A stretch of 64,000 nucleotides of DNA from Fistulifera solaris (lineage: Eukaryota): the NCBI GenBank assembly GCA_030295235.1, contig AP026131.1, positions 1,240,001-1,304,000 of the forward strand, written 5' to 3'. Below, in pieces: positions 4,683 to 64,000 of this stretch (position 1 is the stretch's first letter; every line of letters begins with the position of its first letter). The notes beneath the pieces are model-generated. The model saw nothing but the letters and a program-made list of their open reading frames with translations, was not told where the DNA came from and searched no databases. A program made the translations under genes and the position numbers.

Positions 4683-5179
4683 CATTTTTAGTGAGAAGTT
4701 CAACAAAATGTTGCAGATGAGTTATCATATGTCGAGAAATAAGTAATAATGAACCTGACCCAGCTGACACGTGGGCTCGCTTCGTTTTTCCTCAAATCAA
4801 TTTTGCTCTCTCAATGTTTTGATTCTGCTACGACCTGTCTTCGCTTTCGCACATCTTATCAAAGAATGATGCGTGCTATCGTCATAAATGTTTTTTGAAG
4901 TCACTCGCTGGAAGGGTGACGGCTTCGGAGGAGTTCTGCATTGGTTGCATTCTGCGAAAAAGTACTATATGTTTTAGAGTACAAGAACAGCGTGTTCGGT
5001 TTGCGAGTTCGCATTCGCGGCTCATCTTTTGTTCTTCTTCGCGTTTGTTCTCGCGTTCCTCTATTCCAAATGGTGTGCTTTTACGCTCCGACAATGTCTT
5101 CCTCGCGCGTCCGAAGAAACCCTATTTCGATTATAAAATGACGTTCCGGAATAGCGATAGTGAGGGCGATGGCTTCCAC

Positions 5180-18664: not shown

Positions 18665-18924
18665 TTCTTGTAATGGGAATAATTGAAGGAAGAAAGGAAG
18701 AATGATTGTGATAAAATAATGAATGAAAAGGATCCGTCACTTTTCCGTTGGAAAAGTCACGCGCACGGAGGATTTCGAAATATTCGTATTTCATCTACGA
18801 CAGGTCTTTATCGATGGTTCTTTTTCGATAAAAAGGATACCTGCTTTATTTCTAAGCATATGGATTTTATTTCAAGTGAAACGAATGGATATTGATTGTT
18901 TTACGGCATTTACAACTTTTGGCT

Positions 18925-40935: not shown

Positions 40936-42561
40936 TTATCCTCTTGCAACCTCTGCAATCATTTCATCAATTCGATCAAATTGATCCAAAGGACAATCGA
41001 TTTGCACGCCTTCCCCGGTCTTGGCATCTTTCACACGCAGGTCTTTGATTCTTACTTTGTTCTGTTCCATTTCGGAGGGGGCCACAAACACCATCCGCTG
41101 AGCACCTTTCTGATCGGCATATTTGAAGCTATTCGCGACCTTTTTCTTCGGTGTGGGCATCAAGTCTACCTTGGCTCCTAGTTGCGTTCTCAGCTGAGCC
41201 GCAATTTTCGCGGCCGCCCCGTACCATTCATTGTCCCACGCACAAACAACGTAATCCACTTGATTCTCTTGGAGGAAACTGGGAATTAATTGACATTCTT
41301 GCAGCAACTCCATGATGACACAGTCACCGAATCCAAAGCCGACACAGGAGAGTTGCGAACACGCGGGGCCGCCGTAGAGCTCGAGCAAGCGGTCATAGCG
41401 ACCACCTCCCATAATGGCACGCAATTCACCCCTACGATCAAAGGCTTCCCATACAATACCCGTATAATAAGCGAGTCCGCGAACGACACTGGCATCAAAT
41501 ACTAAATATTCGGCAATGCCGTAGTCATTGGCGAGTGCAAACAGCCGCTGGATGTCTTGCAGGCCCGGAGTGTCGGCCCCGACATAATTTGCCAGAGCCT
41601 CCAAGGATTCCATTTGCAACGCTTGAAGAATTTCCCGACATGATGCTTCGGGAATACCTTTTTCCATAAGCAATGCCGTAACCGCATCGTCACCAATTTT
41701 ATCCAATTTATCAATAATGACACACGTCACCGCAAACAAGTCTTCCTTACTCGAGTCTTCCGATTTCGTAATCCCGTGTTTTGCCAAGATACTTTCCAAA
41801 ACCGCCCGACTGTTGATTTTGATACCCACCAAGTCCGGTCCCACTTGAACACTTTGAAAGAAATGGCACGCCGCGGCCAGTAATTCCAATTCGGCATGCA
41901 CATGCGCGACGCCGACAATATCCATATTCCACTGATAATGCTCTCGTTTGCGTCCGCGTTGCGTCGTTTCGAACCGCCAACACTGCGGAATACTGTACCA
42001 CTTCAGCGGCAAGGCTTCCCGACACTCGCCCGTACTCAAATTGGTGCGTTGCAATACCAAGCGCGCCAACGAAGGTGTCATTTCGGGTCGCAAGGTGACC
42101 CGATGCTCTTCCGGATCCTGGAACGCGTACATTTGCGAAACGATTTCTTCCCCGGCTTTGCGTTCGTACAGTGCCGTTTGTTCCAGTACGGGAGCATCGT
42201 ATTCGAGGAACCCAAAGGCGGCGGCGGAATCGCGAAATTTCTGAAACAACCACGTCCGCAACCGCATTTCCGGAGGGTAAAAGTCACGGGTACCGGACGG
42301 AGGCTCCAAGACAATACCGGAGGACGCGGTCGCGGTTTCCGGTTCCCCTTCTTCCACCAACCGATCGAGTTCTTTTTCGATCTTTTTCATCGTCCAAACC
42401 TCCGGATCGTTGATCTGAGCGTGCCATTCCTGCAGCAATGCGGTACTTTTTGCCTTGCGGACTTTGGCGGCTTGCAATTCTTCGTCCGTGGTCGGTTTGC
42501 CTTTCAATTTCGGACCCAACAACGCCCATTCTTTCACTTGTTCGGGAGTAAATGGACTCAT
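40936..42561 (-). CDS. HARS: Histidyl-tRNA synthetase
   Basis: PPSGTRDFYP, LRPEMTPSLAR, WRFETTQRGRKREHYQWNMD, VVRGLAYYTG, GGGRYD, VGFGFGD, anticodon-binding domain. Confidence 0.97.
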   Translation of the reverse strand: MSPFTPEQVKEWALLGPKLKGKPTTDEELQAAKVRKAKSTALLQEWHAQINDPEVWTMKKIEKELDRLVEEGEPETATASSGIVLEPPSGTRDFYPPEMRLRTWLFQKFRDSAAAFGFLEYDAPVLEQTALYERKAGEEIVSQMYAFQDPEEHRVTLRPEMTPSLARLVLQRTNLSTGECREALPLKWYSIPQCWRFETTQRGRKREHYQWNMDIVGVAHVHAELELLAAACHFFQSVQVGPDLVGIKINSRAVLESILAKHGITKSEDSSKEDLFAVTCVIIDKLDKIGDDAVTALLMEKGIPEASCREILQALQMESLEALANYVGADTPGLQDIQRLFALANDYGIAEYLVFDASVVRGLAYYTGIVWEAFDRRGELRAIMGGGRYDRLLELYGGPACSQLSCVGFGFGDCVIMELLQECQLIPSFLQENQVDYVVCAWDNEWYGAAAKIAAQLRTQLGAKVDLMPTPKKKVANSFKYADQKGAQRMVFVAPSEMEQNKVRIKDLRVKDAKTGEGVQIDCPLDQFDRIDEMIAEVARG

Positions 42562-43100
42562 AATAGTGCGATAAAAGAAAGAAGTTAATTATATAGTGAA
42601 TGCTCGAAGTTAACACAGCAAATATAATAATGATGGCGGATGCAGTTTCTCGCAACGCAAAACACTCGCGTGCCGCAGCCACAAAAAAATCACACGCGTC
42701 TGTTTTGGACCGTTTTGTTTCCGTTGTTTCCGTTGTGGATAGCGGTACGATGAGCGGTCCAAAGAATGTCTCACGACCCAACTCACGATTTCCTCACTCA
42801 CGAGTGTATCGTTAACTGCAAACAAAATAATATTTGAAATGCTTCCAGCATGACAATAAATGAACGATTGTATGATGTGATCTCCGGATGTGTTGCTCTC
42901 CTTAAATGCCATTCTACATGACTCGAACACCGGCCGAGATGCGGCGAGCACGAAAGGAAACGGAAATGGACCGAAAAATAAACGGCCCTCCTCTGGAAAC
43001 GGCTCCAGGAGCGCGGTTTCCACGAGTTGAATCCAATCGCTGGATGCCAGGAGGATGAGCTCACAATTTTCATCCGAGCCAGTGTCATTTTGCAATCATC

Positions 43101-44100
43101 ATGACACCCAACAAGGTCTCTTCTCCGATGGTAAGTGTTTTGTTCACCATGAGAATCGCGCCATTTTATCGAGGATCCCAGCTCACGCTGCGATTCGTTC
43201 CTGCACTTTCAGAAAGTTACCGACCCGGCGACGGCGCTGCTCTTGAAATGCCGCGACAACGACTGGGATGAAGTCTTGCGTATTCTCCAAAAACACCCCT
43301 CGTTGGCGCTCGCGTCGATTGGCATGGACAATGCCGTCAAGACGACGGCGCTGCATCAAACCATCGTGAGCAAGGGCGATGTCGCAAAACGCACCCAGGT
43401 CATTACGACGATTCTCCAACAAACGCCGGCCGCTGCTAGGTCGCGCAACGGATACGGTTCGCTCCCCTTGCACGTGATTGCGCAGCGCAACACCAAATTG
43501 ACGGCGGTGATCAAAGAAGAACTCATGACACTGTTGGTTCATGCGAATCCGGATGCTTTGTTGGAAACCGGTGGACCGGGTGGTCGTACGCCGTTGCATG
43601 TTTGCTTTACGGATTACTTGTCGCCCGAGTTGACGCAATTGATGATAGAAAAGGGCAAGGGAGCCTGCTTCATGACGGACAAGAAAGGTTACCTTCCGGC
43701 GCATATTGCGTGCTCGCGACACTGCTCTCCTCTCAAACTACAAATGCTGTTGGATGTCAATCCGGGGGCATTGCAGCAAACGACAAAGGCGGGATACACG
43801 CTCCTGTCGCTCGCCACTTCGACCGCCACGGCAACGCATCCCAACTATCGTTTGATCGAATACTTGCAGAATGTGTTACAGCAGGCGGGTATTGTGGAGA
43901 CACCCGTTGTGGCGCCCGTTGTACCGGCAAGTCCCCCAATCTTGTCACTCGAGCTTCGGAAACGACGTGCGAAATCATCGAGTCCGGCTCGGAAACGTCA
44001 ACGCCGTGCACCGGAGGACCCGGCGAGTTTGCTGTTGCACTTTTCGCGCACGGCAGTGGACCTTCCGGAACCGGATGTCGTGATTTCGATGGATGTGTAA
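43101..44100 (+). CDS. Ankyrin-repeat-like protein; intron 43131-43212
   Basis: TALHQ, GSLPLHVIA, GRTPLHVC, GYLPAHIAC and GYTLLSLA repeats; basic NLS-like tail. Confidence 0.8.
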
Positions 44101-45780: not shown

Positions 45781-46848
45781 ACAGACGCTTTGGAATTTAC
45801 CTCAGTTAAATACGGAGTAACAATTTATGCTTTGCTTGCTCAACCAGGGTGAAAAGCGAAAGCAATCCAAAATCCGAAGGAAAAGCCTTTCATTTTTCAT
45901 GTTTCATGTTAGTCGTCGATCCGAAAGCGGAGAAGTTGTTGGCTTTCACATTTTTCTGTACGAATGACCCTTCATCCTTCATCTTGCGATGTCCTCATGT
46001 CCGATGTCCGCTAATGTCCTTTGTGCTTTGTGCTTCAGCTTGGCGTCATGACTAAACAATTTCATTCACAGGTGCATGTCGAACAGGTACTACGTTTGCT
46101 ATGTCAAGCCCCATTTTCAGGATTCACGTCTACGATTCTCAAGTCGTATCTTCTACAATTTTAGTATAGTCTCGACGAAGGTCTTCACGGTGGAACATTT
46201 ACAACGAATTCCTTGGCGTCCTTGAAGTTTTCAGTTGTCATTTTCATTGTTGGACATAATGTCGATGGAGCTGGATACGTTCTTTCCTTCTCTACGACCA
46301 AAATGACTAATCTGAATGACTGTTTAGAAAACGTTACTCTGAAAGCTAAATAACGGGAACAAGTGGTAGATGTCAATCAAAAATCAAAGCAAAAAGCTAA
46401 TGTGTGGTTGTAGGTCTGCACTTTATTACTCCGTAGCAGTAGTCTTTTACTCCGTCTTTATCCATTGTTGAAAACAACGATCGTAGTCTCTAGATTCAAC
46501 AAAGTTTTTGATGAATTTTTTTTAAACGGAATCAGACTCACTAGTCACTAGAGCTTTAGAGAGAGTGGCTTGATAGATGGGTGGGTGGTGGCTGGGAAAG
46601 TGGCGGGTAAAATACTACGGAGGAGTAGTCTAAGGAACTCTAGAGGTCCCATACAAAGTACATGAATGAATGAGGAAGATAAAGAGTTGATAGCGCGGCA
46701 AACTAGACTTTAAGTATCTTTAGCTCTTGAGGCACTAGAGAATACGTTCTATTTCGTTATTTTTGAAATCGTTGTATGGTGCCGAGATAATTGGCTTTTA
46801 CATTGCAACCAGTGAGATAGAAGTGCTTGAACAACGACTTTCTCTGAT

Positions 46849-46938
46849 TAATGAAAGATTAAAACGAAGTTGTTCCAATCTTTATGCGAATAGATGAGTT
46901 GCAGTCTAGACCCGCGAACGCCGAATGACGCTGCCAGC
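46849..46938 (-). repeat. Outer 90-bp remnant of element B's 3' LTR
   Basis: Matches 61275-61364 (taatgaaagatt...gacgctgccagc), then breaks off at A's TG. Confidence 0.92.
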
Positions 46939-47452
46939 TGTCAAATTATATTTAGTTCTGGTCATGAGTATTCGGGACTCCTAGTGTGTGTGGAGTGTAC
47001 TTACTGTCTTTGTGATAGTGAGTTTGTGTATCCGGTACTCATGGTATCTTTTGGGGTTCGCTTCCGCACACGTCATCGGAAGTTTGGCGCATGTGCAAGT
47101 TCTTCTCTTGACACGTCGCAGAGGTGTGCGTAGTGTGTGGTATAGTGTTCTACGTGACGTATAAGTTGGTACCAGAGCTAAGGAAGTTATGTTTAAGTCT
47201 ACGACGGCATAGTACTGGTCAAGTGTCGACGTCGACAAGATTTGGTTCAAGATCACAAGATCTTGACTTCATTTCCGCCCTCTTTTGCAGTCTCACATGA
47301 ATAACAATAGTGAATTTGGTTTGCCTCGACTTTCCTTGTTCGCTCTATTCTATTGCATCCTGTCTCTTGAAGACAAGCTTTCTTTCAGTCTCGCTTACTG
47401 TTTTGAAGATTCGTTTCGGGTGAGCTATCTGTGCGCCTCCCGGAATTTGTCA
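46939..47452 (+). repeat. 5' LTR of element A (514 bp)
   Basis: TG...CA ends, 8/9 terminal inverted repeat, near-identical to 53362-53870. Confidence 0.92.
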
Positions 47453-47466
47453 GATTAACAGTCGCA
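47453..47466 (+). other. Putative primer-binding site of A (GATTAACAGTCGCA)
   Basis: Abuts the LTR end; same 14-mer abuts B's 5' LTR; complement TGCGACTGTTAATC fits a tRNA-Asn anticodon arm. Confidence 0.85.
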
Positions 47467-47499
47467 GTTTCGCTTTCAAGTTTCGCTTTCCGTCCCGCC

Positions 47500-50400
47500 A
47501 TGGTTCTCTCTCGAGCTCAATCGCGGGCCGCTTTCAACCACGTGATGGACAATGTCCTTGGCCGTGGTGATGATTCTACTCTTAAGCAAGCGTTGGTGTC
47601 CGCGAGGGTTTCTGGACATCTACTTGCTCCTCGAAGTTCACGTCCTTTGGACATCGGAAGTCTTGAGTTTCGCGAACGGCCGGCGAAAACTTCCCAGTCG
47701 CTTCGTGGTGATAAGACTTTGTTGTATGCCTTCCTCGAGTTTGTGTCTCATCGTGGTCGTTCTGGTGACCCGATCGATGACTGGTTGGCGGTCACTGAAG
47801 ACGGGTTCAATGAGTTCCGCTTAAGCCCCGAACGCGTTTTCGATCGCAACAACCTCGAGGCCCCCGGGGTTCCTGTTCCCCCTCCTGTTGCATCCCGTGC
47901 GCGAGGGAATGTCTCCCGCAGCTCTTTTCAAGCGTGGTATTAAACGTGATCCTTCTCTCTTTCCTACTCTCAAGGACGAGAGCTTCAACGACGCCCTGGC
48001 ATCGTTCTTTTGTCAATCAGGCCCGAGCTCAAGATGTGGAAGAGGTGCTCAACGAGGATTATGCCCCTACTACTGAAGACGAAGAGAGTTGTTCGACGAA
48101 AAACAGAAGTTTCTCTACGCCGTCTTGGAGAGTAAGGTGCTTACGGACCAAGGAAAAGCCCTTATTCAGCGACTACGAAGACACTTACGGCCTTCCAAAA
48201 GGTCTATGCAGCGTTGAAGCGCCATCACCTACAGTCTACCAAGGCCCAGATGGATTCGGCAACGATTCTATCCTACATTACTTCCGTTCGTTATGGAGAA
48301 GGTCATCGTGGTGGTACTGCATCTGGATTCGTGCATGATTGGATTGAGCAAGTTCGTCGTTATGAGCGCATGTCCGGTGACCCCTTTTCCGATAAGCACA
48401 AGCGAATCCTACTTGAGAATGCTGTTAGTACTGTCGCTGAGTTCCGTCAGGTCAAAACTAGTGCTGATTTGGAGTTGACCAAGAATGGAACGGAGTTAAC
48501 TTTCGAGCAGTACTGCGCTCTCTTGATTTCCCGCTGTGTCTCAGTTGAAGAACAAGCCAAACGCAAGTCTCGCGTCGGTACTGTTAACTTCCATGAGACT
48601 TATGCTTCCGATTTCTGTGATGAGGCCGGTACTGGGGAAGTTGACCTTTCTGGTTATCTTGTGGACTCCGATGTTCTTGTTTCTGAGTGGCAAGTTAATG
48701 CTACTGACCGGCGTTCTGTTGGATTCCGTGGTTCTCCTTCAACTGGGTCTGCTCCTAGAACGCGAATGCCGCGCGAACGTTGGTTCCAGTTGAGCGATGA
48801 CGCGCGTCAAATTTGGGATTCTTTGGCGGATCGCGATAAAGCCATCATTCTTGGTTTGCTTTCCGCTCCCGGACGTGATGTCAATGGCGGAAATCGTGAC
48901 ACGCATTCCATGACTCAGACCGGTCGTCCGTCCATCCTCCCGTCGCACGGTGCAGTTTCACGACCTTGACCCTATTGCATCTCACGACTCTTCCCCTCCG
49001 GAACCTACTGAAGAGTTTCATGATGCTGCTCAAGATCCTCCAAGTGCCGTGCTTGATGGTGAGTCTACCGTGCTTGTGAATGCCGCTCGCTCTAGTTCTC
49101 ACGCTGGCCCCGCACGATATTCGTCGCCTTCTGTCTCGTTCTTCGCAGAACAATTCGAATCGTCAAATTAACACTTTGACGACGTGTCGCGTGTCCCTTC
49201 AACACGTTTTCTCCTGTGGATTCGCTACTCGATCGCTGGTGCCAACGGTGGTGTTGCCGGCTGTGACGTCCGAGTCATTCACAAGGATTTTCCCCATCGG
49301 CGTGTCAACATTCAAGGCATCGACAACCATCAGATGACCGATCTCGAACTCGGTACTGTTGGGACCGGTCATAGCTGTTTTCAACCAGTACGCGTTGTAT
49401 GGAAAAGGCCCTACCATTCACGCTTCCGGACAGTTGGAGCACTTCAAGAACGTTGTCGATGACAAGTCTATCCACGTGGGCGGGCGGCAGTGCATCGCTG
49501 ACTCTCGACGGTTACGTGATCCCTCTTCAAGTTCAACAGGGACTCGCTTCGCCTTCCTATTCGTCCGTTTACCGACGACGAATGGCGTTCTCTCCCGCAC
49601 GTCATTATGACGAGCCTTCTCGATTGGGATCCTTCTGTTCTCGATCATGCTAACGATCAAGCTGATTGGTTCGATCGCATCAGCAACACGCTCGATCTTG
49701 AAGATCCTCGTCCCCTCTTCGACGAATTCGGCGACTACCATCGCGGGGATAGTATGGACATCGAAGATCGCTTCGTTTTTGCCCACGTCGCCCTTCCTCC
49801 GATCTTTCCGGCCCTTGACGAAATCATCGAGTTATACGACGCTACGGTATTGAGCCCGCCGCTTTCCAGGCTATTGCCCGCCATTTCGAGGTCTACAACA
49901 ACGAATTTGTCGCACAAGGCCATGTTGATGACGACAACGGCGTGACTGGACCACCCGTGAAAGCCCTTCCGTCCACGCCACGTACTATTCAGCGCCAAGA
50001 CCCGGATCTAGGTCGACTTCGTCCTTACTTTGGATGGATTTCCAACGATCTGATCAAGAAGACGCTTGAAAATACCACCCAGTATGCTCGCCTTCCACTC
50101 CCTGGCAGCACCCTTCTCAAGCGCGCCTTCAAGTCTTCAAATCCGGCTCTCAATGTTCATCGCCGTTCCGAAGCCGTCGCGTGTGATATCGTCACGCCAA
50201 TACACCGGCTATTGACAATGGGTCCCAGTCTGCCGTTATCTTTGTTGGCTATGATACCATGGTTACCGATGTTTATGGTATCAAGACGGATAGCCAGTTC
50301 ATTCGGACCTTGGAAGACAATATTCGTGAACGGGGAGCTCCAACTCGTCTCCTTAGCGATCGCGCCCAAGTTTTGATCAGCAACGCGGTTCAAGACGTTC

Positions 50401-53217
50401 TTCGTACTTTCTGTATCGGCGTGGCAAAGCGAGCCCCACCAACAGCAACAAAACCCTGCCGAACGCCGTTTCCAGACGATCAAGAATACTGCCAACCGCA
50501 TCTTAGACCGTGCCGGCCACCTTCTACGTGGCTTCTTTGTCTTCAATACGTGTGCTTCCTCCTCAACCACACGTACAATCAAACTTTGAAGACTGTTCCG
50601 TTGTTGGCGTTGACGGGTTCGACTCCTGATGTTAGCGTTCTTTTGCGCTTCTACTTCTGGCAACGTGTTTTGTATTTGAAGCACGACTACGGTTTCCCTT
50701 CTGATTCTCCTGAAGGCCTTGGCACTATCGTCGGTATTTCCGAACATGTTGGGCCCGCTCTTTGCTGGAAGATTCTCACTGCTGACACCAAGCAAGTCAT
50801 TTGCCGATCTTCCGTTCGTCCGTACACTGAGGACGACCCTAATTTGCGCGCCGCTCAGGCTGCCGGGGAGATGTCTTCTACTACTTCTGCTCCTGTCATC
50901 CTGTCCCGCAAGGATTCAGTCACAGAGAAAATTTCGTTTTCTCTCAGCCCTCCGACGACGCAGCGACCGTGCCTCCTCCTCCACCGCTTCGTTGATGTCG
51001 AAGATTTGATTGGTCGAACGTTTCTGACAGATGTGGCTTCTGATGGTCAGAAACACCGAGCAAAGATTGCACGCCTCGTCGACGATTTCGATTCTTCCGT
51101 TGAACGAGTACCAGAACGAATCAAGTTTGTGTGCAAGGTTGGAGAATCCGAAGCCGAAGAAGTTTTCAGCTATGCCCAGATCATGGCATACCTAGCTCGA
51201 GACGCGGATGCCCCTGTTTGGAAGTTTAAGCACATCATTTCGCATCAAGGTCCCCTTAAAGATGGAGATCTCGACTACAAAGGTTCTTCCTACAATGTAT
51301 TGATCGGGAATGGGAGAACGGGAGATCACAGCTGAGCCTCTAAATGTTATTGCTTCCGATGACCCTGTGACCTGTGCTATTTATGCCAAGGAAAATAACC
51401 TCTTGGATGTTCCCGGTTGGAAAAGATTCAAGTCCATCGCAAAAAGACACAAGAAGTTCGTCCGGTTGGTGAACCATGCTAAGCTTCGCTCCTACAACAC
51501 GGCTCCGCGATACAAGTATGGTTTCGAAATTCCCGTGACTATGCACATGCGATGCGTCTAGACGAGCAAAACAAGAACACCAAGTGGAAGGATGCCGTTG
51601 CCTTAGAGTTGCTTCAAATTCAAGAGTACGAGACCTTCAAGGATTTAGGTCACAAGTCGGTTGGGAGGCCTCCTCAAGGTTACAAGAAAATTCAGCGTCC
51701 ACTTAGTTTTTTGACGTCAAGCACGACGGGCGTCACAAGGCTCGACTGGTGGCAGACGGACACTTAACCGATATCCCTACTGAGTCTGTCTACTCCGGCG
51801 TTGTCAGTTTACGGAGTTTCCGTCTGGTTACTTTTCTTGCCGAGCTTAATTCTCTCAAGTTCTGGGCTACCGACATCGGCAATGCCTATCTCGAGGCGTT
51901 TACCTCCGAACGCGTCTACATTGAGGCTGGACCTGAGTTCGGGGAATTGGCTGGTCATATTCTTCTTATCAGCAAGGCCCTTTACGGACTACGGTACCAG
52001 CAGCGCCGCAATGGGCCGATCGATTGGCTGACGTTATGCGCGAATTGGGTTTTCAACAATGCAAGGCCGATCCCTACATTTGGCTACTGACGCGAACGAA
52101 GATGTTTACGAGTATGTTGCGGTCTATGTTGATGATTTGGCCTTAGCGATGAAGGATCCTCAAGCGTTTGTCGACTTGCTAACGAAAGAGTACAAGTTCA
52201 AGTTGAAGGGAACCGGCCCAGTCAGTTTCCATCTCGGAATGGACTTCACTCGTGACAAGGATGGTACTCTTTGCATGTCTCCCAAGAAATACACCGAAAA
52301 GATCATCGCGAATTACGAGCGAATGTACGGGGAGTCGCCCGAAACAGAATGTCACTTCACCGTTAGAAAAGGGCGATCATCCGGAATTGGACACTTCAGA
52401 GTTTCTGGATGAGAAAGGTACTCGAGATTACCAGTCTTTGATTGGTTCGTTGCAATGGTTGATCAGTATCGGGCGCTTCGACATCATGACTGCTGTTATG
52501 ACGATGTCCGGCGTTTCGTTCTGCTCCGCAAGGGTCATTTGGATCGCGTTAAGCGGATCTTTGGATACGTTTAGAAGATGCGGAACGCCGCCATTCGCTT
52601 TCGTACAGGGGTTCCTGATTTGTCCGATCTACCTAATTTTGAGTACGATTGGTCCAAGTCGGTTTACGGTGACGTGAAAGAGGTTGTTCCCCATGATGCT
52701 CCTGGACCTCTCGGCAAGGCAGTTGTTTCTACACATTATGTCGATGCGAACTTGATGCATTGCGTGGCTACGGGGAGATCTGTGACTGGTATTCTACATT
52801 TCCTTAACCAGACGCCGATCGATTGGTATTCCAAGAAGCAAGCTACTGTCGAGACGGCTACGTATGGATCCGAGTTCGTCGCCGCAAGGACTTGTGTTGA
52901 ACAAATCATCGACATTCGAAACACACTTCGCTATTTGGGTGTTCCTATCCGAGACAAGGCTTATATGTTTGGCGATAATCAATCGGTTGTCAACAGCTGA
53001 CGCAAGTTCATGCCAAGCTTCACAAGCGTCACACGATGCTTTCCTTTCATCGAGTTCGTGAGGCAATTGCGTCTGGTATGATTGCTTTCCTTCACATCCC
53101 TGGCGACATGAACCCGGCCGATATTCTCAGTAAGCATTGGGGATACTCGCAGATCTGGCCGGCGTTTTGAAGGCTGTGTTGTTTTGGATGGGTGACACCT
53201 CGGAGATCGAAGACTAG
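47500..53217 (+). CDS. Gag-Pol polyprotein of A, heavily frameshifted in this assembly
   Basis: PR LLDRGANGG-like motif (~49230), IN (LLSDRAQ, PAERRFQTIK), chromo-like segment (~51220-51430), RT (TDIGNAYL, AVYVDDL), RH (YVDANLMH, WYSKKQATVETATYGSEF, NPADILSK). Confidence 0.9.
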
Positions 53218-53348
53218 GATTCCAAGGTGTCGAGTGATATTTGTGGTTATGTGTTGAGTGGTTTTACATGTTTATATGTCTGAGCGAGGCAAACAGGGAT
53301 GGAGTTTGGTTTGAATTGGTTTGGATTTGGATTGGAGACCGTGTCTGC

Positions 53349-53361
53349 GAGAAGACGGGAG
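53349..53361 (+). other. Polypurine tract of A
   Basis: GAGAAGACGGGAG immediately before the second LTR. Confidence 0.8.
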
Positions 53362-53870
53362 TGTCAAATTATATTTAGTTCTGGTCATGAGTATTCGGGA
53401 CTCCTAGTGTGTGTGGAGTGTACTTACTGTCTTTGTGATAGTGAGTTTGTGTATCCGGTACTCATGGTATCTTTTTGGGGTTCGCTTCCGCACATCGGAA
53501 GTTTGGCGCATGTGCAAGTTCTTCTCTTGACACGTCGCAGAGGTGTGCGTAGTGTGTGGTATAGTGTTCTACGTGACGTATAAGTTGGTACCAGAGCTAA
53601 GGAAGTTATGTTTAAGTCTACGACGGCATAGTACTGGTCAAGTGTCGACGTCGACAAGATTTGGTTCAAGATCACAAGATCTTGACTTCATTTCCGCCCT
53701 CTTTTGCAGTCTCACATGAATAACAATAGTGAATTTGGTTTGCCTCGACTTTCCTTGTTCGCTCTATTCTATTGCATCCTGTCTCTTGAAGACAAGCTTT
53801 CTTTCAGTCTCGCTTACTGTTTTGAAGATTCGTTTCGGGTGAGCTATCTGTGCGCTCCCGGAATTTGTCA
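53362..53870 (+). repeat. Second LTR of A (509 bp), also acting as 5' LTR of the tandem partial copy
   Basis: Differs from the first LTR only by three small indels that I could see; followed again by the PBS (53871-53884) and gag. Confidence 0.92.
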
Positions 53871-55135
53871 GATTAACAGTCGCAGTTTCGCTTTCAAGTT
53901 TCGCTTTCCGTCCCGCCATGGTTCTCTCTCGAGCTCAATCGCGGGCCGCTTTCAACCACGTGATGGACAATGTCCTTGGCCGTGGTGATGATTCTACTCT
54001 TAAGCAAGCGTTGGTGTCCGCGAGGGTTTCTGGACATCTACTTGCTCCTCGAGTTACGTCCTTTGGACATCGGAAGTCTTGAGTTTCGCGAACGGCCGGC
54101 GAAAACTTCCCAGTCGCTTCGTGGTGATAAGACTTTGTTGTATGCCTTCCCTCGAGTTTGTGTCTCATCGTGGTCGTTCTGGTGACCCGATCGATGACTG
54201 GTTGGCGGTCACTGAAGACGGGTTCAATGAGTTCCGCTTAAGCCCCGAACGCGTTTTCGATCGCGAACAACCTCGAGGCCCCCGGGGTTCCTGTTCCCCC
54301 TCCTGTTGCATCCCGTGCGCGAGGGAATGTCTCCCGCAGCTCTTTTCAAGCGTGGTATTAAACGTGATCCTTCTCTCTTTCCTACTCTCAAGGACGAGAG
54401 CTTCAACGACGCCCTGGCATCGTTCTTTTGTCAATCAGGCCCGAGCTCAAGATGTGGAAGAGGTGCTCAACGAGGATTATGCCCCTACTACTGAAGACGA
54501 AGAGAGTTGTTCGACGAAAAACAGAAGTTTCTCTACGCCGTCTTGGAGAGTAAGGTGCTTACGGACCAAGGAAAAGCCCTTATTCAGCGACTACGAAGAC
54601 ACTTACGACGCCCAAAAGGTCTATGCAGCGTTGAAGCGCCATCACCTACAGTCTACCAAGGCCCAGATGGATTCGGCAACGATTCTATCCTACATTACTT
54701 CCGTTCGTTATGGAGAAGGTCATCGTGGTGGTACTGCATCTGGATTCGTGCATGATTGGATTGAGCAAGTTCGCCGTTATGAGCGCATGTCCGGTGACCC
54801 CTTTTCCGATAAGCACAAGCGAATCCTACTTGAGAATGCTGTTAGTACTGTCGCTGAGTTCCGTCAGGTCAAAACTAGTGCTGATTTGGAGTTGACCAAG
54901 AATGGAACGGAGTTAACTTTCGAGCAGTACTGCGCTCTCTTGATTTCCCGCTGTGTCTCAGTTGAAGAACAAGCCAAACGCAAGTCTCAGCGTCGGTACT
55001 GTTAACTTCCATGAGACTTATGCTTCCGATTTCTGTGATGAGGCCGGTACTGGGGAAGTTGACCTTTCTGGTTATCTTGTGGACTCCGATGTTCTTGTTT
55101 CTGAGTGGCAAGTTAATGCTACTGACCGGCGTTCT
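53871..55135 (+). mobile_element. Tandem truncated second copy of A (PBS plus gag)
   Basis: Near-identical to 47453-48717; ATG at 53918; ends abruptly at ...gaccggcgttct. Confidence 0.92.
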
Positions 55136-58100
55136 TTTACCGAGGATGGGGACTCCAAGGTATCGGGCGTTTGGCGCATTTCCACGATCTGGTCAGTGGC
55201 GGTTTTTGCTGCTACAAACTCACTGCCATACGTGGCTGTCTCAACTGTCGCCTGTTTCTTCGAATACCAGTCCCATGGAGTGCGATTGAGGAAGTGCAAG
55301 ATACCCGTAACAGCCTTGCCGGTCAACATACAATGGTACAAATTGGCGTCGACATGCGTGACTGTGGTAACCGGTTTGCCGAGAGGTTCCGGGGAGATCA
55401 TCAGGCAATACTTCCCTCGACGTTACCATACACGGAGTACTCCCAATCGTATTCGACGTCCGGTAATTGGGAGAAGTCAGGTTCATCAACGAGGACTCGA
55501 ATAGAAGAGTTCCGGAATTTGGACACAAAACCGAAGATACGCTTGACTCGCTCCAAATGTCCAAAACGGGCTGTGCTCGGAAAGGATGACATTGTCATTA
55601 CTGCCGTAAAAATGTCGAACTTCCCGATTGTTACCAGCCACTGTAGTGCTCCAATAAGTGACTGGTATAGCTTAGTCTTTTCGTCCTTGAGGAACTCCGT
55701 ATCGTCCAACTCTGGGTGGTCACCTTTCTCCAGGGGAGACTGATAGAACTTGGGCGGATGACCGAAGATGCACTCAAACATCGTCACGACACGCTCAATA
55801 TAGCCGCGCTGGGAGATGTGCAGGGCCCCCTTTTTGTCCTTTTCTTCGCCCGGTTTAGTCTTCTCACGGAAGAAATTCATCCCGAGATGGAATTCCGGCG
55901 TGCCTGTACCCTTGAGTTTGAACTTATGCTCGATCTCCAACTGATTGATGATCTCTTGTGCATCCACTGCAGCAATCAGGAGGTCGTCGACATATACTGC
56001 AATATATTCCCATAGATTGCCCTTGCGACGCATCCAGATGTCAGGCTCACATTTCGATGGAGAGAAACCCATGGAGCGCAAGACGCTGGCGAACCGGTCA
56101 TGCCATCGGGCTCCAGAAGAGCGTAGTCCATACAGTGCCTTCACTATGACAAGCACATGTCCTGCAAGCTCTCCAAACTCGGGCCCGGCGATGAAATACA
56201 CCTTCTCCTTCGTGTCAGCCTCAAGGTACGCATTCCCAATGTCGGTGGACATGAGCTCGAGTTCATTCAACTCGGCGAGGAAGATTACCAAACGCACACC
56301 ACGGATGGTAACGACACCAGAGTAAACGTCCTCCAACGTTAAATCCGTTAAATGCCCATCAGCAACGAAGCGTGCTTTGTGCCGACCGTCGTGTTTTACG
56401 TCAAAGACATAATGGCAACGGATGCACTTGTACCCGTTCGAATCTCAACGGCCCCTTTCTGCCCTAGGTCACGGAACGTGGAGTAGTCAAATAGCTGGGA
56501 ATTCTCCAACACGATTGGCGTCTTTCCAATTGTTGTTACCGTTCTCCTTGTCGAGCTGAATTGCATGCTTCGAGTTTCTTGGGATTTCGAAACCGTACTT
56601 GAAACATGGTGTCGTCCGCACGCACGCAACTTTGCTTGGTTGACCATGCGATGGAAAATAGCGCCTCGCTGATGCCGGCTTTCTTGAATCGCTTCCAGCC
56701 TGGTGTATCCAGCAAGTCATTGTTGCGAGCGTAAATGGCACACTCAATGAATGCCTCGCGGGCAGCTACAGACAGCGGCTCCCAAGTGTTGGTTCCGTCT
56801 CCCCATTCGACACGAACATTCCATTTGTCGCCATCTAACGGACCTTGATGCTCAACAACCCGACGAAAGGTCCATTCAGGTTCATCAGCGGTCTCCTTGC
56901 TGATATATTCCATCAGTTGTTGGTAGTCAATCATCTTCTCGTACTTGCCGTTATTGATGGAACAGCGGAACTTGATGCGATCGGGATGTTTCTCGAATGC
57001 TTCATCAGCGTCCACAACGGCAATGATCTTGCTGCGGAAGACTTGCCCTTCGACTTGTCCGTCCTCTACATCACTCTTGTGGAGGAAGGTACGACCGGTG
57101 AGAGTAGTAGGGTCCACGATGGGTACTGCGAACTGCTTCGCATCCAGATCGGGAGTGGGGACGACCGAATCAGCATGGTGACGAACAACGTCAGCACGGC
57201 TGCGTAAGTGAGGCACCGAGTCCTCCCCACGGAGCAGAGCAGGGTCCAAAGGATCGGGGACCGCTGGAGGAGGGACCTCCCCATGAGTGGAAGCACTGGC
57301 CTCCCCATCTGAAGGCTCCCCATGAGAAAGGCCAAGGGGGGCATTACGCGATGCAGACCGAAGTCGAGAGGAGATAGCATCAGCCAGGACGTCGGCGGCA
57401 GTGGGGAATGCCTCGGGAAAGTGGGGGTCGACTCGAAGATTCGGATCAGACGGATCATCAGCGGGACGAACACCGGAGCAATGAACTGACGAGTGTCGTG
57501 GGTAAGAATGCGAAAGGTCATAGCGTTACCCACGTTGTGCTCAATACCCACAAAATACCCCAAGTTTTCAGCGATTCCGAAGGAAAAGAGTTGTCATCAA
57601 CGCGATACAAGACCCGTTGAAAGAAGTGAAACAGCAAGAAGGGGCTGATGTCAGGTGTGCTACCGTCCAAGAGCTGCATGGGAACGCCCTGGAGGCGAAG
57701 ATTGTAGGTGTGGTTGAGAACGTCACACACGTACAAGAGACACTCAAACCAGAGGTTAGCGGGGGCACCAGTGCGATCGAGAACCGTGTTGGTGACGCTT
57801 GATGTCTTGTATGCGTCGTTCAGCACGATTCTGATGCTGATAATGTGGTTCACTTTGCCACTGGGGAATGAACAGCATACGGCAAATCTGCTTGACCTTG
57901 GTGCTAGTCTCGGATTTGGCACTGTCACTGATGAGCTTGGTGGGGCCATGGAGAGCGATGACATCCATCAACGCCTTGGAGAAATCCGATTCGGAGCGAA
58001 GAGGAAACACATTGGTGACCAGTGTGTCGACACCCACAAAAAGCTGGACTTTCGTGATACCACGGCGGTGTGCGAACGTCGGCAAAGAAGGTATCCGTGG

Positions 58101-60997
58101 CAATGGCTTCTTTGCGGCGAGCAACATTGAGCGCTGGATTGGGCGATTTGTAATGCTTCTTGAGGACGGTACCCTCAGAGAGTCGCGTGAGCTGTGTGGT
58201 ATTCTCGAAGGTCTTCTGGATAACATCGGCGGGCTGGTAGGCAAACAGCGGCCGGAGCTTCTCAAAATCGGGATAGTGTCGAATGAGCAGAGGCGATGGG
58301 ACATCAACGAGGGCACGGTTGTGGTCGTAGACTTGAAGGGTGTCCCTATAGTAAGTATGGACTGCAATGGCATCGAGAGACAATTCCAAGGGTCCAATCG
58401 GCCGGAACAAGGACGATATCGGGCATGTCAGGAAGAGGATCGGGTACGAGGCGAATATACTCTAACGTATCATCGTCATGCGGTGCACCCAGAAGCTCGT
58501 GGAAAACGGTAGATCCATCAGACTCAGCAGCGGTGGTAGCCGTCGAGGAATCATCGCTCAGAGGCGAGATGTATATCGGAGCAGAGAACGGTGCGTCATC
58601 AATGCTGAGCGGCGCATGGTGGTATGCATCACTGACGTCAAGGGCAGGGAGAAGTACATGCCCATACGGCTTCAGCGAAGACGTCGCAGAGCAAGAGTGG
58701 GATCGACCATCGGTTGAACAACTTGTTGATGTTGTCGGAGTTCACCAAATTCATCGAACAAATTGTTGCCACTGGCATCACGAGCAATGGGATTCAGGTG
58801 GTCGTGGGCATCGTAGGCATCAACCTCCCCATCATATGCACGGGGGTCCCATTCATCCTCGGAAGTCATGAGTTCCTGCCGCATATCGCTGTAAGTCGTC
58901 ATTAGTGGGACGGCGTGGTGGTAGACGGACCAGCCCGTCAAGGATGGTCAAGGGTAACTTGTAGCCATGTGGCGTAATGATGCATTGACTGCCTCCAAGA
59001 CGAGTGGAACGGTCATCAACGCGACATCCATAGTGTTCCATCTGCACGGAAGAATGAACTGTGGTACCACGGCCGAGGTAAGCGTACTGCGGAAATAGTA
59101 GAAGGACAGGACCATCCGTGGAGTCGGCGATACCAGCAACAGTGCCGATGCGTACGGACGTGAGTTGATGGTTATCGAGTCCTTGGATATTGACTGTCCG
59201 ACCTGGGACGTAACTAAGAAGTTGGACATCCTCGCCACCTACCCCTCCGTTGGCTCCTCTGTCAACAAGCGATTGCATGGCGGATGCCGACACAATATTG
59301 TTGGAGACGACGTAATGATGCGTGCAGACAATACGTTCTGTAAAAGTGACCTTACGACTTTCCTTGGGGGATGCCTGAGCACGATCACCTACTCCAAGGA
59401 AGTTCTTCATTGAAGCTGGATGCGATGAGGTCTTGGACTTTGATGTCAATCCAGTGGCCGTCGAGTGGACGCCAATAGCTCCATTAGTCGTTTCATCGCT
59501 ATCGGTAGTAGCGGCGGCACCGTGAGCCTCGAGTTCGTGAACATTGGCGGCGATAGGTCGATTGATGATAACCGACTTCCCGCATCAGACAACTTGTCCC
59601 AAGCTTTTCGATCGCTGGCCGACAGAGCATTCCATTGTTCCTTTGTCAATCGCGGAGATCGGCCGGAACGACGGCTACGGGTAGCATAAACTTCATAGGC
59701 AACATCATAGTCATTGTCGCCGAGAGAATCGTCACCCGGGTTGATCTCTGAGTCAACTTCGTGCATGTAGACCTGCTGACTTTTACGAGGCGACTGAGGA
59801 TGCTGCTCGAGCTTGTAATTGTCATCATGTAATGATGCCGTGGAGTGAAGCAATTTCATGTACTGGTCGAAGCCCTGTGGGCTACCAGTCTGACTTTCAA
59901 TTTGTTCGGCATGTACAGCGACTTTGTTCAAGCATGGTATGCGGCGAACAGCGTTCTCGAAGATACTTTTCTTATGCTCGTCGGAGAAATGCTGTGAAGC
60001 CGGCACAAGCTGCTCATATTCACGGATATCTCTCTCAAGTTGAAGCAGGTACTTGTCGGTAAGAATCAGCATGAACCGAAGGATTGAGCTGCGCTGCCAT
60101 GATGGCACGATGCTTATGGCGAGCATCGATGCGTGCGTAGGTTGACGAGGTGTAGTAGGATACAAGATCTCGGAAAACCGCCTGTGCATTACCATCCGGC
60201 CGAGTGATCTGCAAGAATCTGTCGCGCTTTGTCGGTTTTGAGAACTGTGTCCCAAACTGCAATCATATAGCGTTGCTGTTCGACGAACAATTCTTTATCT
60301 TCATCACTCTCAGCAATGTATTCGGAGTTCAACACTTCAGGGCACCGTTGCGCGGCTGCCTGACGGCGAAGTAGACTCCAGCCATTCGAGCCATTGATTG
60401 TCGTTTTTGAATACCTTGAAGACAGACTGCTCGCGACGTTCACGGCGAAATGCGTCGGCCTTTGAAACATTATTGCTGGAAAACGAAGGCGACTCGGATA
60501 CTGAGCTAGCACGGCCGGGTGCCTGGTTTGCAGGAGAACTCATCAATCCCTGATCACTGAAGCGTCCTTGTTGACTGAGTCGACGAAGAAGCTGTTCATT
60601 ATCAAAACACTCCTTTAGCGTGAATTGCGACGGAAAGCTTTCCATTGTTGGGGTGTCACGCGTAGAAACAAGGAGTCATCGGCATTTGGTAACGTATAAT
60701 ATTCAGTGCTGTTCACAAAGTACTTGAATGACTGAATAGACGGTTCCAAAATAGACGGGGCGTGAAACCGTTTCCCATCTTCGGTAGTAAACTTCAATGT
60801 CTCAGCAGTGCCGTCTCTCCAATCGGCCAAAATCTGCTCAATTGTCGTGTATTTATTTTGCACCAAGGCCTGGTACATATCCGACTCCTGTTGCCAACCG
60901 AACAAGTTGATGAAGACATGATCGAACGGTGTCATGGTAGTCTCCCCCTGTTCCGGTTGGGAAGATTGAACGATTGACTCCTCGTTCGCCGTGTCAT
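55136..60997 (-). CDS. Gag-Pol polyprotein of B, frameshifted, RNase H C-terminus missing
   Basis: PR LVDRGANGG, IN (LISDSAK, QNRAERRIQDIK), chromo-like VRVEWGDGTNTWEPL, RT (TDIGNAYL, AVYVDDL), RH (HVDANLYH, WYSKKQATVETATYGSEF) cut after LGVPILGK. Confidence 0.9.
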
Positions 60998-61260
60998 CTC
61001 CAGTAACACGGGTACCAACTGTGACCCCCCGGTGGGGTCGCTGAAGAGAGGTCCGTATCCTCGTTCAAAGACATCGCAAGTTGCTATGAGTCCAAACAAG
61101 CAACTCTTCCTTTGCAAGAATGACGTGCGGACGGAAGATATGCAAACGATGTGTCTTGCAAGTGTGTTGTTATTCGCGGCTAAGCAAGCGAACGAACACA
61201 AGCGATCGGCAAGAACACACTCAATGAATCAACGATACAAGTCTTTCAGAAGATAAGACT

Positions 61261-61274
61261 TGCGACTGTTAATC
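61261..61274 (-). other. Putative primer-binding site of B (GATTAACAGTCGCA on the minus strand)
   Basis: Plus strand tgcgactgttaatc directly abuts the LTR at 61275; identical to A's PBS. Confidence 0.85.
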
Positions 61275-61675
61275 TAATGAAAGATTAAAACGAAGTTGTT
61301 CCAATCTTTATGCGAATAGATGAGTTGCAGTCTAGACCCGCGAACGCCGAATGACGCTGCCAGCGAATCAATTGACAAACAACAAGAAACGAACCACAGC
61401 TTGGTTCCGAACGATAAGGCTCTCACTATACGGGCCGGGCCAACTGGCAATAAGCTCTCTATCTCCTGCAATTGCCAAATGACAATCTCAACAGAAGAAA
61501 ACGTAACGACAAGTCGAACGCGCAATAGAAAACTCAATAATAAGACTATAAAGATTTTACTTTTTCACGAAGAATCCAAATCTCACAGACGAGACATTTG
61601 TCAACGTCAGATTTGAATGTCGCATAGGGAAGACATAAGTACCACACGGTACTCCAAGGGTCGAAGATCTCAATA
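61275..61675 (-). repeat. 5' LTR of element B (401 bp, TA...TA termini)
   Basis: Inner boundary fixed by identity with 46849 onward and by the PBS; outer boundary fixed by TSD CTGAT; imperfect terminal inverted repeat TAATGA/TATTGA. Confidence 0.85.
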
Positions 61676-61715
61676 CTGATGTTGCAAAAACACTTTGAAA
61701 AGGTGGCACAATAAG

Positions 61716-62190
61716 CTAGAAAAAATACGGCTACGCCCTGGGATGTGGGGCTTCTGAGTCACGACCGTTGACTACTTTCTACGCCATACCAAAATGCTCA
61801 CCATGACAAAATCTTAAAAATATCGCATTCGACGAGGCAGCCGCCCGCACTGCCAATCTTTTGTGTACCCTCGAGCTCCGCTCTTTTTTTTTCGAAAACT
61901 CCATCGAGGCACATCCCGGCACCATGGCCAACCTTTGCCATTGAAATACAATGTATTTTAGATTCGATTATAGACCAAATAAATTAGATATCGCTTTTTA
62001 ATATCATCAAGAGATAAAGTCCGCGTTATTTTGTCTATAATCGTGTTTAAATAAATATCGTTATTTCACGTGTTGACAGCAGCGGCGAGGGTGACAGGAT
62101 GACAGACAACGACGGAGACGAGCAACTTTTTTACAAAATGGTCGTGACTCAGAAGCCCCACATCCCAGGGCGTAGCCGTATTTTTTCTAG
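61716..62190. mobile_element. MITE, 475 bp, with 51-bp perfect TIRs
   Basis: CTAGAAAAAATACGGCTACGCCCTGGGATGTGGGGCTTCTGAGTCACGACC at 61716-61766 is inverted at 62140-62190; flanking direct repeat CAATAAG. Confidence 0.93.
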
Positions 62191-62520
62191 CAATAAGCAC
62201 CAATAGTTATCATTTTGAAGAAATAGCAAATGAAAGACTAGAGACCCCCTAGCCCCTAGCTGGGTGCGGAGTCCTCGAGAGGAATCTGGAGTTTGGAAGG
62301 TGTATAAACGTCATGAATTATCTCGTACACAATAAGGTTATACGGAATATTTCTCAACGCACGCGTGCTATACGGCAAGGTATACGGTACTTTGTATACT
62401 ACTCCGTATTACGGTATGTAAAACTTCCGCATTGCAGCACTGACCATGACAATCACTATATCCCTTGGACGCCTTTGTTCGTTCATCATTGATCAACGAT
62501 AGCTAACAAAGTTAGTAAAA

Positions 62521-64000
62521 ATGGGAAAGTCCGGCATTGGCTTTATCGAAAGTCACATCACGACGGTGCGGCACGGCGATACCTTCGAACGAACCTGCCG
62601 CTACTGCCCCGCGACGCGGAAAAGCCAGCAATTGCAAGCGCCCCGCTGGGCGGTGCACTTTATTGAATGCGCCAATTGTCCGCGGGCAGTGAAAGTGGAA
62701 GCCTATCAAAGGTATCCTGCCAGCAAGGAAGTGAAAGCGGCCGCAATTGCAGCCAACATTTTGTGCGAGACGACGGGAAAAATCATCGACCCTCATTCGC
62801 AAGATGTTGCCTTGAGCATGGTGTCTTTGAGTGCGCCGCGCATCTCGGCCGCGAGAAAAGAGAGATCACCGGCGCCCAAGAAGCAAAAGACATTAATGGA
62901 GGCCTATGATCAGAAATGTCCTCCAGCGCAAGCGGCACGCATCCGTGAAAAAGTTACGGCCTTTTTGATGGAAGCGGGCATTTCCATCAATGCCGTCGAA
63001 ACACCTTCGTTCGGTGAACTGCTGCAAGAGCTCAATCCGGACTTTGCTCCTTTGATGGTCCCGGCGCGGCAGTTGTTGCGTCAGGATTTGGTGCGCTATT
63101 CCGACCAGATTCGAGAGACCATCCAGTTGGCCATGACAAGACAGCCCGAAAAGTACACGACGCTAGGCATTGACAGTTTTGTCAATGAGAACGGGGATCA
63201 AGTGTACATCTTTACCGCCGCCAAAGGCGACAAAGTGTTGTTTGTGGATTGTGTCTACATGACCAAAGAATGGCAAAGTGAACAAGAAATCGCCCGCATC
63301 ATTCTGGCACAGCTCCGTGCCGTGGCGAATGGGCAACCGGTCGAGGCCGTCGTGGGAGGTTTCGTCTTCGATCCCACCAAAGTGGATCCAGCCGCTGGGA
63401 AAATCGTTCAAGAGGAGTTTTCCAAGTTGGTGGTTTCGGGATGCTGCACGCACGCGGCGGATCTTCTCGTGGAAGAGTTTGCCAAGATTCGCGTGATTCA
63501 GGAAACGGTGGAGGACGGTTTCTTTGTGGCCAAGTTTGTGAAAGAACACGATCGGGTCAAGATCCTGTACAAAGATCATTTGATCAAATTAGGCAAGGGA
63601 ACACCCCAGAATCCCACCGCCCACACGCGCTTCGCTTATTGCGATCATACTCTCAAGCATGTATTGGGGGAGAATTGCTGCAACATCAAAATTATGCGGA
63701 GTTTGATTTCGGATCCTGCGTGGGATGAGGTTGTCAGTACGATGGACCAAGACGAGGTATCGAAATTCGTCCGTTTGATCAAAGGAGCGGACAGTCATTC
63801 TTTCATGAAACGAGTTGATGCCGTGCAGATGCTTGCTTCGACAGTGGCTGTATTCATTGCGCATATCGAGAGACGCAGTCTTCGAGGAAGCTGGATCATT
63901 CCTCTCTTTGAGGCTTTCGAAAAGGATCTCTGGTACTGGCAAAATGAGCCTAGTGTTTCCCTCATCCTTGGGGTTGAGGCATGTGAGGCTGTCTTGACTG
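62521..64000 (+). CDS. BED-zinc-finger / hAT-like (DUF659-type) transposase or transposase-derived gene; frameshifted, runs off the window
   Basis: Manual translation: TCRYC...RWAVHFIECANCP (BED-like), GISINAVETPSFGELLQELNP, TLGIDSF, FVFDP, GCCTHAADLLVEEF (CxxH), HTRFAY; absent from the ORF track because it has no stop in the window. Confidence 0.82.
   Translation, partial: MGKSGIGFIESHITTVRHGDTFERTCRYCPATRKSQQLQAPRWAVHFIECANCPRAVKVEAYQRYPASKEVKAAAIAANILCETTGKIIDPHSQDVALSMVSLSAPRISAARKERSPAPKKQKTLMEAYDQKCPPAQAARIREKVTAFLMEAGISINAVETPSFGELLQELNPDFAPLMVPARQLLRQDLVRYSDQIRETIQLAMTRQPEKYTTLGIDSFVNENGDQVYIFTAAKGDKVLFVDCVYMTKEWQSEQEIARIILAQLRAVANGQPVEAVVGGFVFDPTKVDPAAGKIVQEEFSKLVVSGCCTHAADLLVEEFAKIRVIQETVEDGFFVAKFVKEHDRVKILYKDHLIKLGKGTPQNPTAHTRFAYCDHTLKHVLGENCCNIKIMRSLISDPAWDEVVSTMDQDEVSKFVRLIKGADSHSFMKRVDAVQMLASTVAVFIAHIERRSLRGSWIIPLFEAFEKDLWYWQNEPSVSLILGVEACEAVLT

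Follow-up and report, generated by a model that had tools for sequence, protein, structure and literature searches.

A candidate primer binding site complementary to the tRNA-Asn(GUU) anticodon arm in two diverged Copia-type retrotransposons and their metagenomic relatives

Pairing of the primer binding site (PBS) with the anticodon stem-loop of a 3'-truncated initiator tRNA-Met (iMet) is described for Drosophila copia and yeast Ty5, the experimental basis being cited in an article on rust-fungus elements (Kojima, 2024; PMC10886601). According to the same article, Copia and Helenus elements of rust fungi use the anticodon loops of Tyr, Ile, Asp, and iMet tRNAs, and two elements, Helenus-3_PGr and LTR-2_PSt, are assigned to a tRNA-Asn-GTT primer; in its supplement Helenus-3_PGr-I begins with cGATTAACAGTCGAA and LTR-2_PSt-I with caATTAACAGTCGAA, and the deposited Helenus internal sequences open with GATTAACAGTCG, the same as in the elements described here. 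A plant survey reported half-molecule tRNA primers in Ty1/copia lineages only, with the primer type being lineage-specific (1/2 tRNA-Ile in Bianca; 1/2 tRNA-Met in Osser, Bryco, and Gymco-II) (Neumann, 2019; PMC6317226), and the PBS of FunCo1, ATTAAGAGTCT, was described as complementary to an internal region of tRNA-Lys (Donnart, 2017; PMC5445492). An earlier note on the locus analyzed here was not aware of a description of its mode of priming, but these three articles provide one: priming from a non-Met anticodon arm is in print in each of them, and priming by tRNA-Asn-GTT once, in Helenus.

For the diatom Copia (CoDi) lineages, the main text of Maumus (2009; PMC2806351) contains no mention of tRNA or of a primer binding site. 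A literature search on diatom Copia PBS and on the letters of the motif returned PMC10886601 as the sole relevant article, subscription journals and Repbase Reports being outside its scope, and one supplementary file of PMC4247016 contains no Asn or GTT entries.

The locus and its two Copia-type elements

The window (the whole stretch of DNA analyzed, 64,000 nucleotides) contains exactly three matches to the 14-mer GATTAACAGTCGCA on its two strands, all of them exact (Table 1). A shuffle control allowing up to two mismatches gave a mean of 0.53 matches, with three being reached in 2 of 100 shuffles, and the chance expectation for an exact 14-mer was calculated by hand as approximately 0.0005 per 128 kb. 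The two sites on the + strand lie in 99% repeats (46939-48717 and 53362-55135) and are therefore not independent, so that elements A and B provide one independent comparison. In all three places the 14-mer is flush with the long terminal repeat (LTR) end of a Copia-type element, as the earlier note had claimed and as the exact matches and repeat ends bear out; the boundary is firm in element B, where the 90-nt repeat shared by its two LTRs stops exactly at the 14-mer. The site lacks the TGG start of a PBS for a tRNA CCA end, again in line with that note, and the sequence after the LTR holds no TGG... candidate elsewhere. In both of these diverged Copia families, the 14-mer occupies the place expected of a primer binding site. 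No tRNA genes were found in the 64-kb window.

Table 1. Features of elements A and B, with positions counted from the first letter of the window
Feature	Positions	Strand	Remarks
Candidate 5-bp target site duplication CTGAT, left of B	46844-46848		Tentative; partner at 61676-61680
Element B 3' LTR remnant, U5 end	46849-46938	-	90 nt; 100% identical to 61275-61364, direct orientation; cut by the insertion of A
Element A 5' LTR	46939-47452	+	514 nt, TGTCA...TTTGTCA; start is where the repeat begins
Element A putative PBS, GATTAACAGTCGCA	47453-47466	+	Complementary to tRNA-Asn(GUU) positions 27-40
Element A internal region	47467-53361	+	Polyprotein ATG at 47500; reading frame in many pieces as assembled
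Element A RVT_2	51707-52409	+	Pfam: 51707-52087, E 1.9e-10; 52032-52409, E 7.2e-7
Element A purine-rich tract GAGAAGACGGGAG	53349-53361	+	Polypurine tract directly before the second LTR
Element A second LTR	53362-53870	+	509 nt; 3' LTR of the complete copy, shared with the following partial copy
Second A putative PBS (53871-53884) and ~1.25 kb of second A internal region	53871-55135	+	99% repeat of 47453-48717
Element B internal region, 3'-truncated	55136-61260	-	RVT_2 at 55404-56444, E 4.2e-30; collinear with A by tblastx
Element B putative PBS, same 14-mer	61261-61274	-	Exact match
Element B 5' LTR	61275-61675	-	U5 end at 61275 firm; outer end tentative (CTGAT duplication and TATTG...CATTA termini)

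Comparison of the two elements by tblastx gives collinear segments with 35-76% amino-acid identity, highest in the reverse transcriptase (RT), and the LTRs of A and B are unalignable, with the best blastn match having an E value of 0.89; the divergent proteins and the absence of visible LTR similarity noted earlier from the letters alone are both confirmed. Apart from the 14-mer, nucleotide matches are limited to short coding stretches of approximately 80% identity. The 14-mer is the sole exact stretch shared by A and B in the 5' non-coding part, and the bases flanking it differ on either side. By these comparisons, A and B are collinear homologues belonging to different families.

The Copia-type RT domain (Pfam RVT_2) is present in both elements and occupies residues 1387-1601 of 1916 in full-length relatives. 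No Pfam domain for integrase or protease was found in A, B, or the relatives, and a profile search of solved structures for the same two enzymes returned one match only, which was spurious. Since the RT of the 1916-aa relatives lies approximately 315 aa from the C-terminus, a distance with room for RNase H only, the Copia order of domains would be implied. Among named proteins, the closest relative of the B RT comes from the diatom Fistulifera solaris (64% identity). An identification of A or B as Blackbeard, Surcouf, or PtC34 was rejected, as the primers printed for these elements match neither A nor B, their sole match in the window (at 7902, with 3 mismatches) being outside both (PMC2806351). 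A and B are Copia-type like the CoDi lineages of that article.

The LTRs of element A are direct repeats with TG...CA ends (TGTCA...TGTCA), and the pair differs by no substitutions and 3 indel events (7 gap columns), which indicates either that the A copy is young or that its LTR pair has been homogenized. The B LTR remnant is broken by A at 46938/46939; hence A inserted into the 3' LTR of B. This 90-nt remnant is all that is left of the second LTR of B, the LTR ends read TATTG...CATTA, and the region of the B polypurine tract is deleted. The CTGAT 5-mer match proposed as a target site duplication lies near an undefined LTR end and is weak when taken alone, with approximately 0.5 such matches being estimated by chance. 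The partial second copy of A breaks off at 55135, where the truncated 3' part of element B adjoins it. At this junction (55135/55136), which is a deletion or a rearrangement, the right end of A is lost and no target site duplication is readable. The layout of A (LTR, internal region, LTR, partial internal region) suggests either a tandem array together with a deletion or a mis-assembly. The polyproteins of both elements have many broken frames as assembled; single-base indels account for many of the differences between the A copies, and assembly errors may therefore lie behind some of these breaks.

Several further features were observed in the window. Just outside the 5' end of B, a 55-nt inverted repeat (61715-61769 and 62137-62191, 98%) flanks approximately 370 nt, a unit that resembles a small terminal-inverted-repeat element. 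It is followed on the + strand by a 499-aa open frame leaving the window (62503-63999; DUF659, E 5.8e-10); DUF659 accompanies relatives of hAT-type transposases. A tandem array with a period of approximately 290 nt and copies 82-96% alike by self-BLAST occupies 18918-20444. Ordinary host genes near the elements encode histidyl-tRNA synthetase (40939-42588, - strand; tRNA-synt_His, E 1.2e-33) and an ankyrin-repeat protein (43153-44097, + strand). In a protein atlas, the synthetase is classed as eukaryote-like, with no finer taxon.

The core of the motif in metagenomic relatives

A search with the B RT yielded polyproteins of approximately 1900 aa with 59-64% identity in many metagenome assemblies, and an alignment of 29 relative proteins led to 79 metagenome loci. 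Viral contigs contained no relatives, whether searched with a single RT ORF or with the 29-sequence alignment, and no tRNA genes were called by ARAGORN in the 79 loci. Positional conservation of the motif in other families had been set beforehand as a test, and it was found: 41 of the 79 loci contain the 11-nt core GATTAACAGTC on the coding strand and none contains it on the opposite strand, and in all 41 it is directly preceded by an LTR-like end (CA in 28, TA in 12, and GA in 1), typically ...TTGTCA. The 150 nt upstream of the core sites fall into 34 mutually unalignable clusters. In one locus (L187), a 4690-nt repeat ends at position 4690; one copy continues directly into the motif (4691) and the other into different DNA, which places the motif flush with the LTR end in this locus too.

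Many of the relative contigs are circular-like assemblies with one collapsed LTR, in which the motif lies 400-700 nt past the ORF end and 50-1450 nt ahead of the next ORF start. The whole interval between ORF end and ORF start is available for 24 loci, among which a hand count gave 19 with the core, one with a one-base-insertion variant (L180), and four with neither (L135, L161, L163, and L174, the last carrying a disrupted version). At positions 318-331 of L161, an LTR-like end ...ATATCA is followed by GATTAAAAGTC, which differs from the Asn site by one base and is complementary to a loop of the Lys-UUU type (CUUUUAA); this looks like a primer switch via a single substitution. Five further loci carry GATTAACAG, then TT or AT.

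The three bases that would pair with tRNA positions 27-29 vary among the core sites (GCA in 10, ACA in 9, TTG in 7, GTA in 4, TCA in 3, TCG in 3, AGA in 2, and others in 3), so that the invariant duplex comprises 11 nt, at positions 30-40. In many relatives and in element A, these three bases are followed by GTT(A/T), as in GCAGTTACG and ACAGTTTAC, a stretch having no partner in the reference tRNA-Asn. The distance from PBS to polyprotein start, which is 47 nt in element A and approximately 56 nt in L131, reaches 840-1470 nt in eight relatives (L187, at 4691-6135, L193, L127, L141, L195, L134, L173, and L162); such spacing could reflect an unusually long leader or a further ORF upstream.

The tRNA-Asn match and the candidate primers

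A scan of IMG/VR viral contigs for the 14-mer, with tRNAs called by ARAGORN, gave at least 120 loci. Among the matches listed there are 71 tRNA-Asn(GTT) genes, 66 of which carry the complement TGCGACTGTTAATC with the anticodon GTT; several tRNA-Asn genes among these listed matches come from giant-virus bins and have a G1 start and a eukaryote-like look (e.g., L068:574-647), and approximately 55 of the at least 120 loci have no tRNA called over the 14-mer among the matches listed. The anticodon occupies positions 34-36 by definition, and the 14-mer therefore pairs with positions 27-40, a span including the entire 5' strand of the anticodon stem, the 7-nt loop CUGUUAA, and U39-C40 of the 3' strand. 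The earlier note had read the complement as positions 27-40 of a tRNA-Asn with anticodon GTT and had attributed the arm to yeast tRNA-Asn; the 66 genes among the matches listed confirm this arm in real tRNA-Asn sequences. In tRNA-Asn, positions 34 (queuosine) and 37 (t6A) are modified, which could hinder pairing or copying; t6A37 is also present in initiator tRNA-Met, the primer of copia and Ty5.

We consider it about 75% probable that the 14-mer serves two diverged Ty1/copia-type elements as the binding site of their minus-strand primer and pairs with the anticodon arm (positions 27-40) of the cytosolic tRNA-Asn(GUU). The primer would be a 3'-truncated tRNA-Asn with C40 as its 3' end, and reverse transcription from C40 would copy straight into the U5 part of the LTR. 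Such a mode would be that of Drosophila copia and yeast Ty5, with tRNA-Asn in place of initiator tRNA-Met; the primer of Drosophila copia is reportedly a 39-nt fragment. The earlier proposal of priming from a tRNA-Asn half is thus supported in part, namely by the place of the site, the complementarity to positions 27-40, and the core in 41 of 79 relatives; as to its other part, we infer from the letters of the site that the primer may be a cut fragment ending at position 40, with priming starting there.

Reads from the source-organism runs X1, X3, and X4 and from the wetland metagenome X2 were aligned to the tRNA-Asn gene L068:574-647 at 80% likeness. Runs X3 and X4 yielded no matching reads on this reference at that threshold, metagenome X2 yielded 22 matching pieces that are not assignable to the host, and the matching pieces overall carry 4-8 differences from the reference. 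A 414-nt contig from X1 (depth 26) matches reference positions 21-63 (43 nt) without gaps and with 4 differing letters. Its unmatched ends supply an acceptor stem (GGACTAT/ATGGTCC), a D arm (TAGCTCAGTAGG), the 3' strand of the T-stem (CCGCC), and, downstream, a TTTTT run in keeping with a Pol III gene, and read as those of a normal tRNA of nuclear type. If the T-stem is paired in this contig, three of the four differences would fall at positions 50-52, which would leave at most one for the other 36 positions, the 17-nt arm included. The isotype of the contig is probably tRNA-Asn, and the contig is compatible with a host tRNA-Asn whose arm would be exactly complementary to the 14-mer. A second X1 contig (depth 220, with AT-rich flanks) matches reference positions 7-49 (L068:580-622) with 5 differences and is probably an organellar tRNA.

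These reads also bear on the strongest rival explanation, which is that the primer is a different RNA sharing the arm: another cytosolic tRNA one base away (e.g., a Lys-UUU tRNA with an identical stem), a tRNA of organellar origin, or tRNA-Asn that is left uncut and has its usable 3' end made otherwise. The depth-26 contig is not typed as Asn from the match alone. Its 19-nt 5' end occurs at 9 loci in viral contigs and at 0 loci in prokaryote genomes, and all nine are Met or Lys tRNAs sharing its acceptor and D region, with no Asn among them; the host contig may therefore be another isoacceptor, such as Lys-UUU, which is one base away. The depth-220 contig and the Lys-type loop apparently used in L161 point in the same direction. 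Nevertheless, the PBS exactly complements the Asn loop CUGUUAA in A, in B, and in 41 of the 79 relatives, whereas with Lys-UUU as primer the duplex would contain a mismatch at its center. Assembly of retrotransposon particles takes place in the cytoplasm, which makes an organellar primer unlikely. Taken as a whole, a primer other than a cut tRNA-Asn is an unlikely explanation.

Still less probable is that the motif is conserved as a cis-element for some other function (packaging, dimerization, or end recognition by integrase) and that its likeness to tRNA-Asn is coincidental. The invariance covers 11 nt only, and the semi-conserved GTT after the 14-mer in many relatives and in A is unpartnered in the reference tRNA, both of which would suit a cis-element. 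Against it, the motif sits exactly at the PBS place with no TGG... alternative after the LTR, the full anticodon loop of a real tRNA is matched, a one-base variant (L161) fits the loop of another tRNA, and Kojima (2024) interprets this core, in unrelated fungal elements, as a PBS for tRNA-Asn.

Self-priming of the Tf1 type has been predicted for certain Copia lineages, the TAR elements among them (PMC6317226). In this mode the transcript of the element supplies its own primer, its 5' end pairing back onto the site and then being cleaved. Such self-priming is not supported for A and B and is very improbable: the longest complement to the 14-mer within either LTR is 6 nt, an ordinary value that was equalled or exceeded in 665 of 1000 shuffles for A and in 612 of 1000 for B. 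Chance, or an assembly artifact copying the 14-mer between elements, might be suspected from the rearranged locus (A within the 3' LTR of B, a tandem partial A, and the junction at 55135/55136) and from the single-base indels between the A copies, but the sequences flanking the motif in A have nothing in common with those in B, and 41 independent metagenome contigs, drawn from many assemblies, carry the core, which excludes both.

A wider proposal goes beyond the tRNA-Asn reading of the 14-mer. It states that a large and old diatom-type Copia clade, comprising at least 34 unalignable LTR families in addition to A and B, depends on a tRNA-Asn 5' fragment ending at C40, that the 11 invariant bases are the true primer duplex, and that both stress-induced cleavage of the anticodon arm and the modification of G34 (queuosine) and A37 (t6A) set the supply of primer. 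We regard this combination as speculative and unlikely to hold in full. If it were true, bursts of retrotransposition in these algae would be tied to nutrient stress via the production of tRNA halves. If the primer is truly a cut tRNA-Asn, transformable diatoms would suit a search for the primer-making nuclease, a question shared with copia and Ty5.

Comparison with described anticodon-arm primers

Standard LTR pipelines test tRNA 3' ends only and would therefore report "no PBS" for elements of the type described here; the 11-nt core beside an LTR end offers a simple diagnostic. On the tRNA-Asn reading, the present set adds a whole clade of autonomous Copia elements, common in aquatic metagenomes and probably belonging to diatoms, to the retroelements primed from the anticodon arm rather than from the CCA end. 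Until now, reports of tRNA-Asn in such priming have concerned small non-autonomous elements of fungi only.

The Copia superfamily, a PBS that lacks TGG and abuts the LTR, and pairing with an anticodon stem-loop are common to Drosophila copia, yeast Ty5 (as described in PMC10886601), and the elements analyzed here. The tRNA differs, since copia and Ty5 use iMet, and so does the evidence, the primer of copia and Ty5 having been shown by experiment, whereas the Asn primer proposed here is read from sequence. For the Ile, Lys, Tyr, and Asp primers of other Copia lineages and the Asn primer of Helenus, the mode has likewise been deduced from sequence. Half-molecule primers in the plant survey likewise involve tRNAs other than the one proposed here, and tRNA-Asn appears in that survey as a 3'-end primer (2% of elements) and not as a half-molecule (PMC6317226). 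FunCo1 shares with A, B, and L161 the register ATTAA-anticodon-GTC, but has a loop of the Lys(CUU) type and a fungal host (PMC5445492).

The closest likeness is to Helenus, in which the same core, (G)ATTAACAGTCG, lies one or two bases past the LTR and is read as a tRNA-Asn-GTT site, and which is mobilized by Copia-type elements with 5-bp duplications (PMC10886601). According to that article, the Helenus elements are short and non-autonomous, belong to Pucciniales, and carry a tRNA-like sequence in the LTR, whereas A and B are autonomous Copia elements of approximately 7 kb from another eukaryotic lineage; the bases after the core are GAA in Helenus and GCA here. The PBS site here is common to a large clade, unlike that of the Helenus families. 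Priming of this kind is a described class of mechanism, and the PBS core has itself been published for non-autonomous elements of fungi (PMC10886601). What is new, as far as the sequences can be read, is the presence of the site in autonomous elements and across a large and diverse clade, the invariance of its 11-nt core, and an apparent natural one-base switch to a Lys-type site; the host lineage of the clade, probably diatoms, is likewise new for this type of primer binding site.
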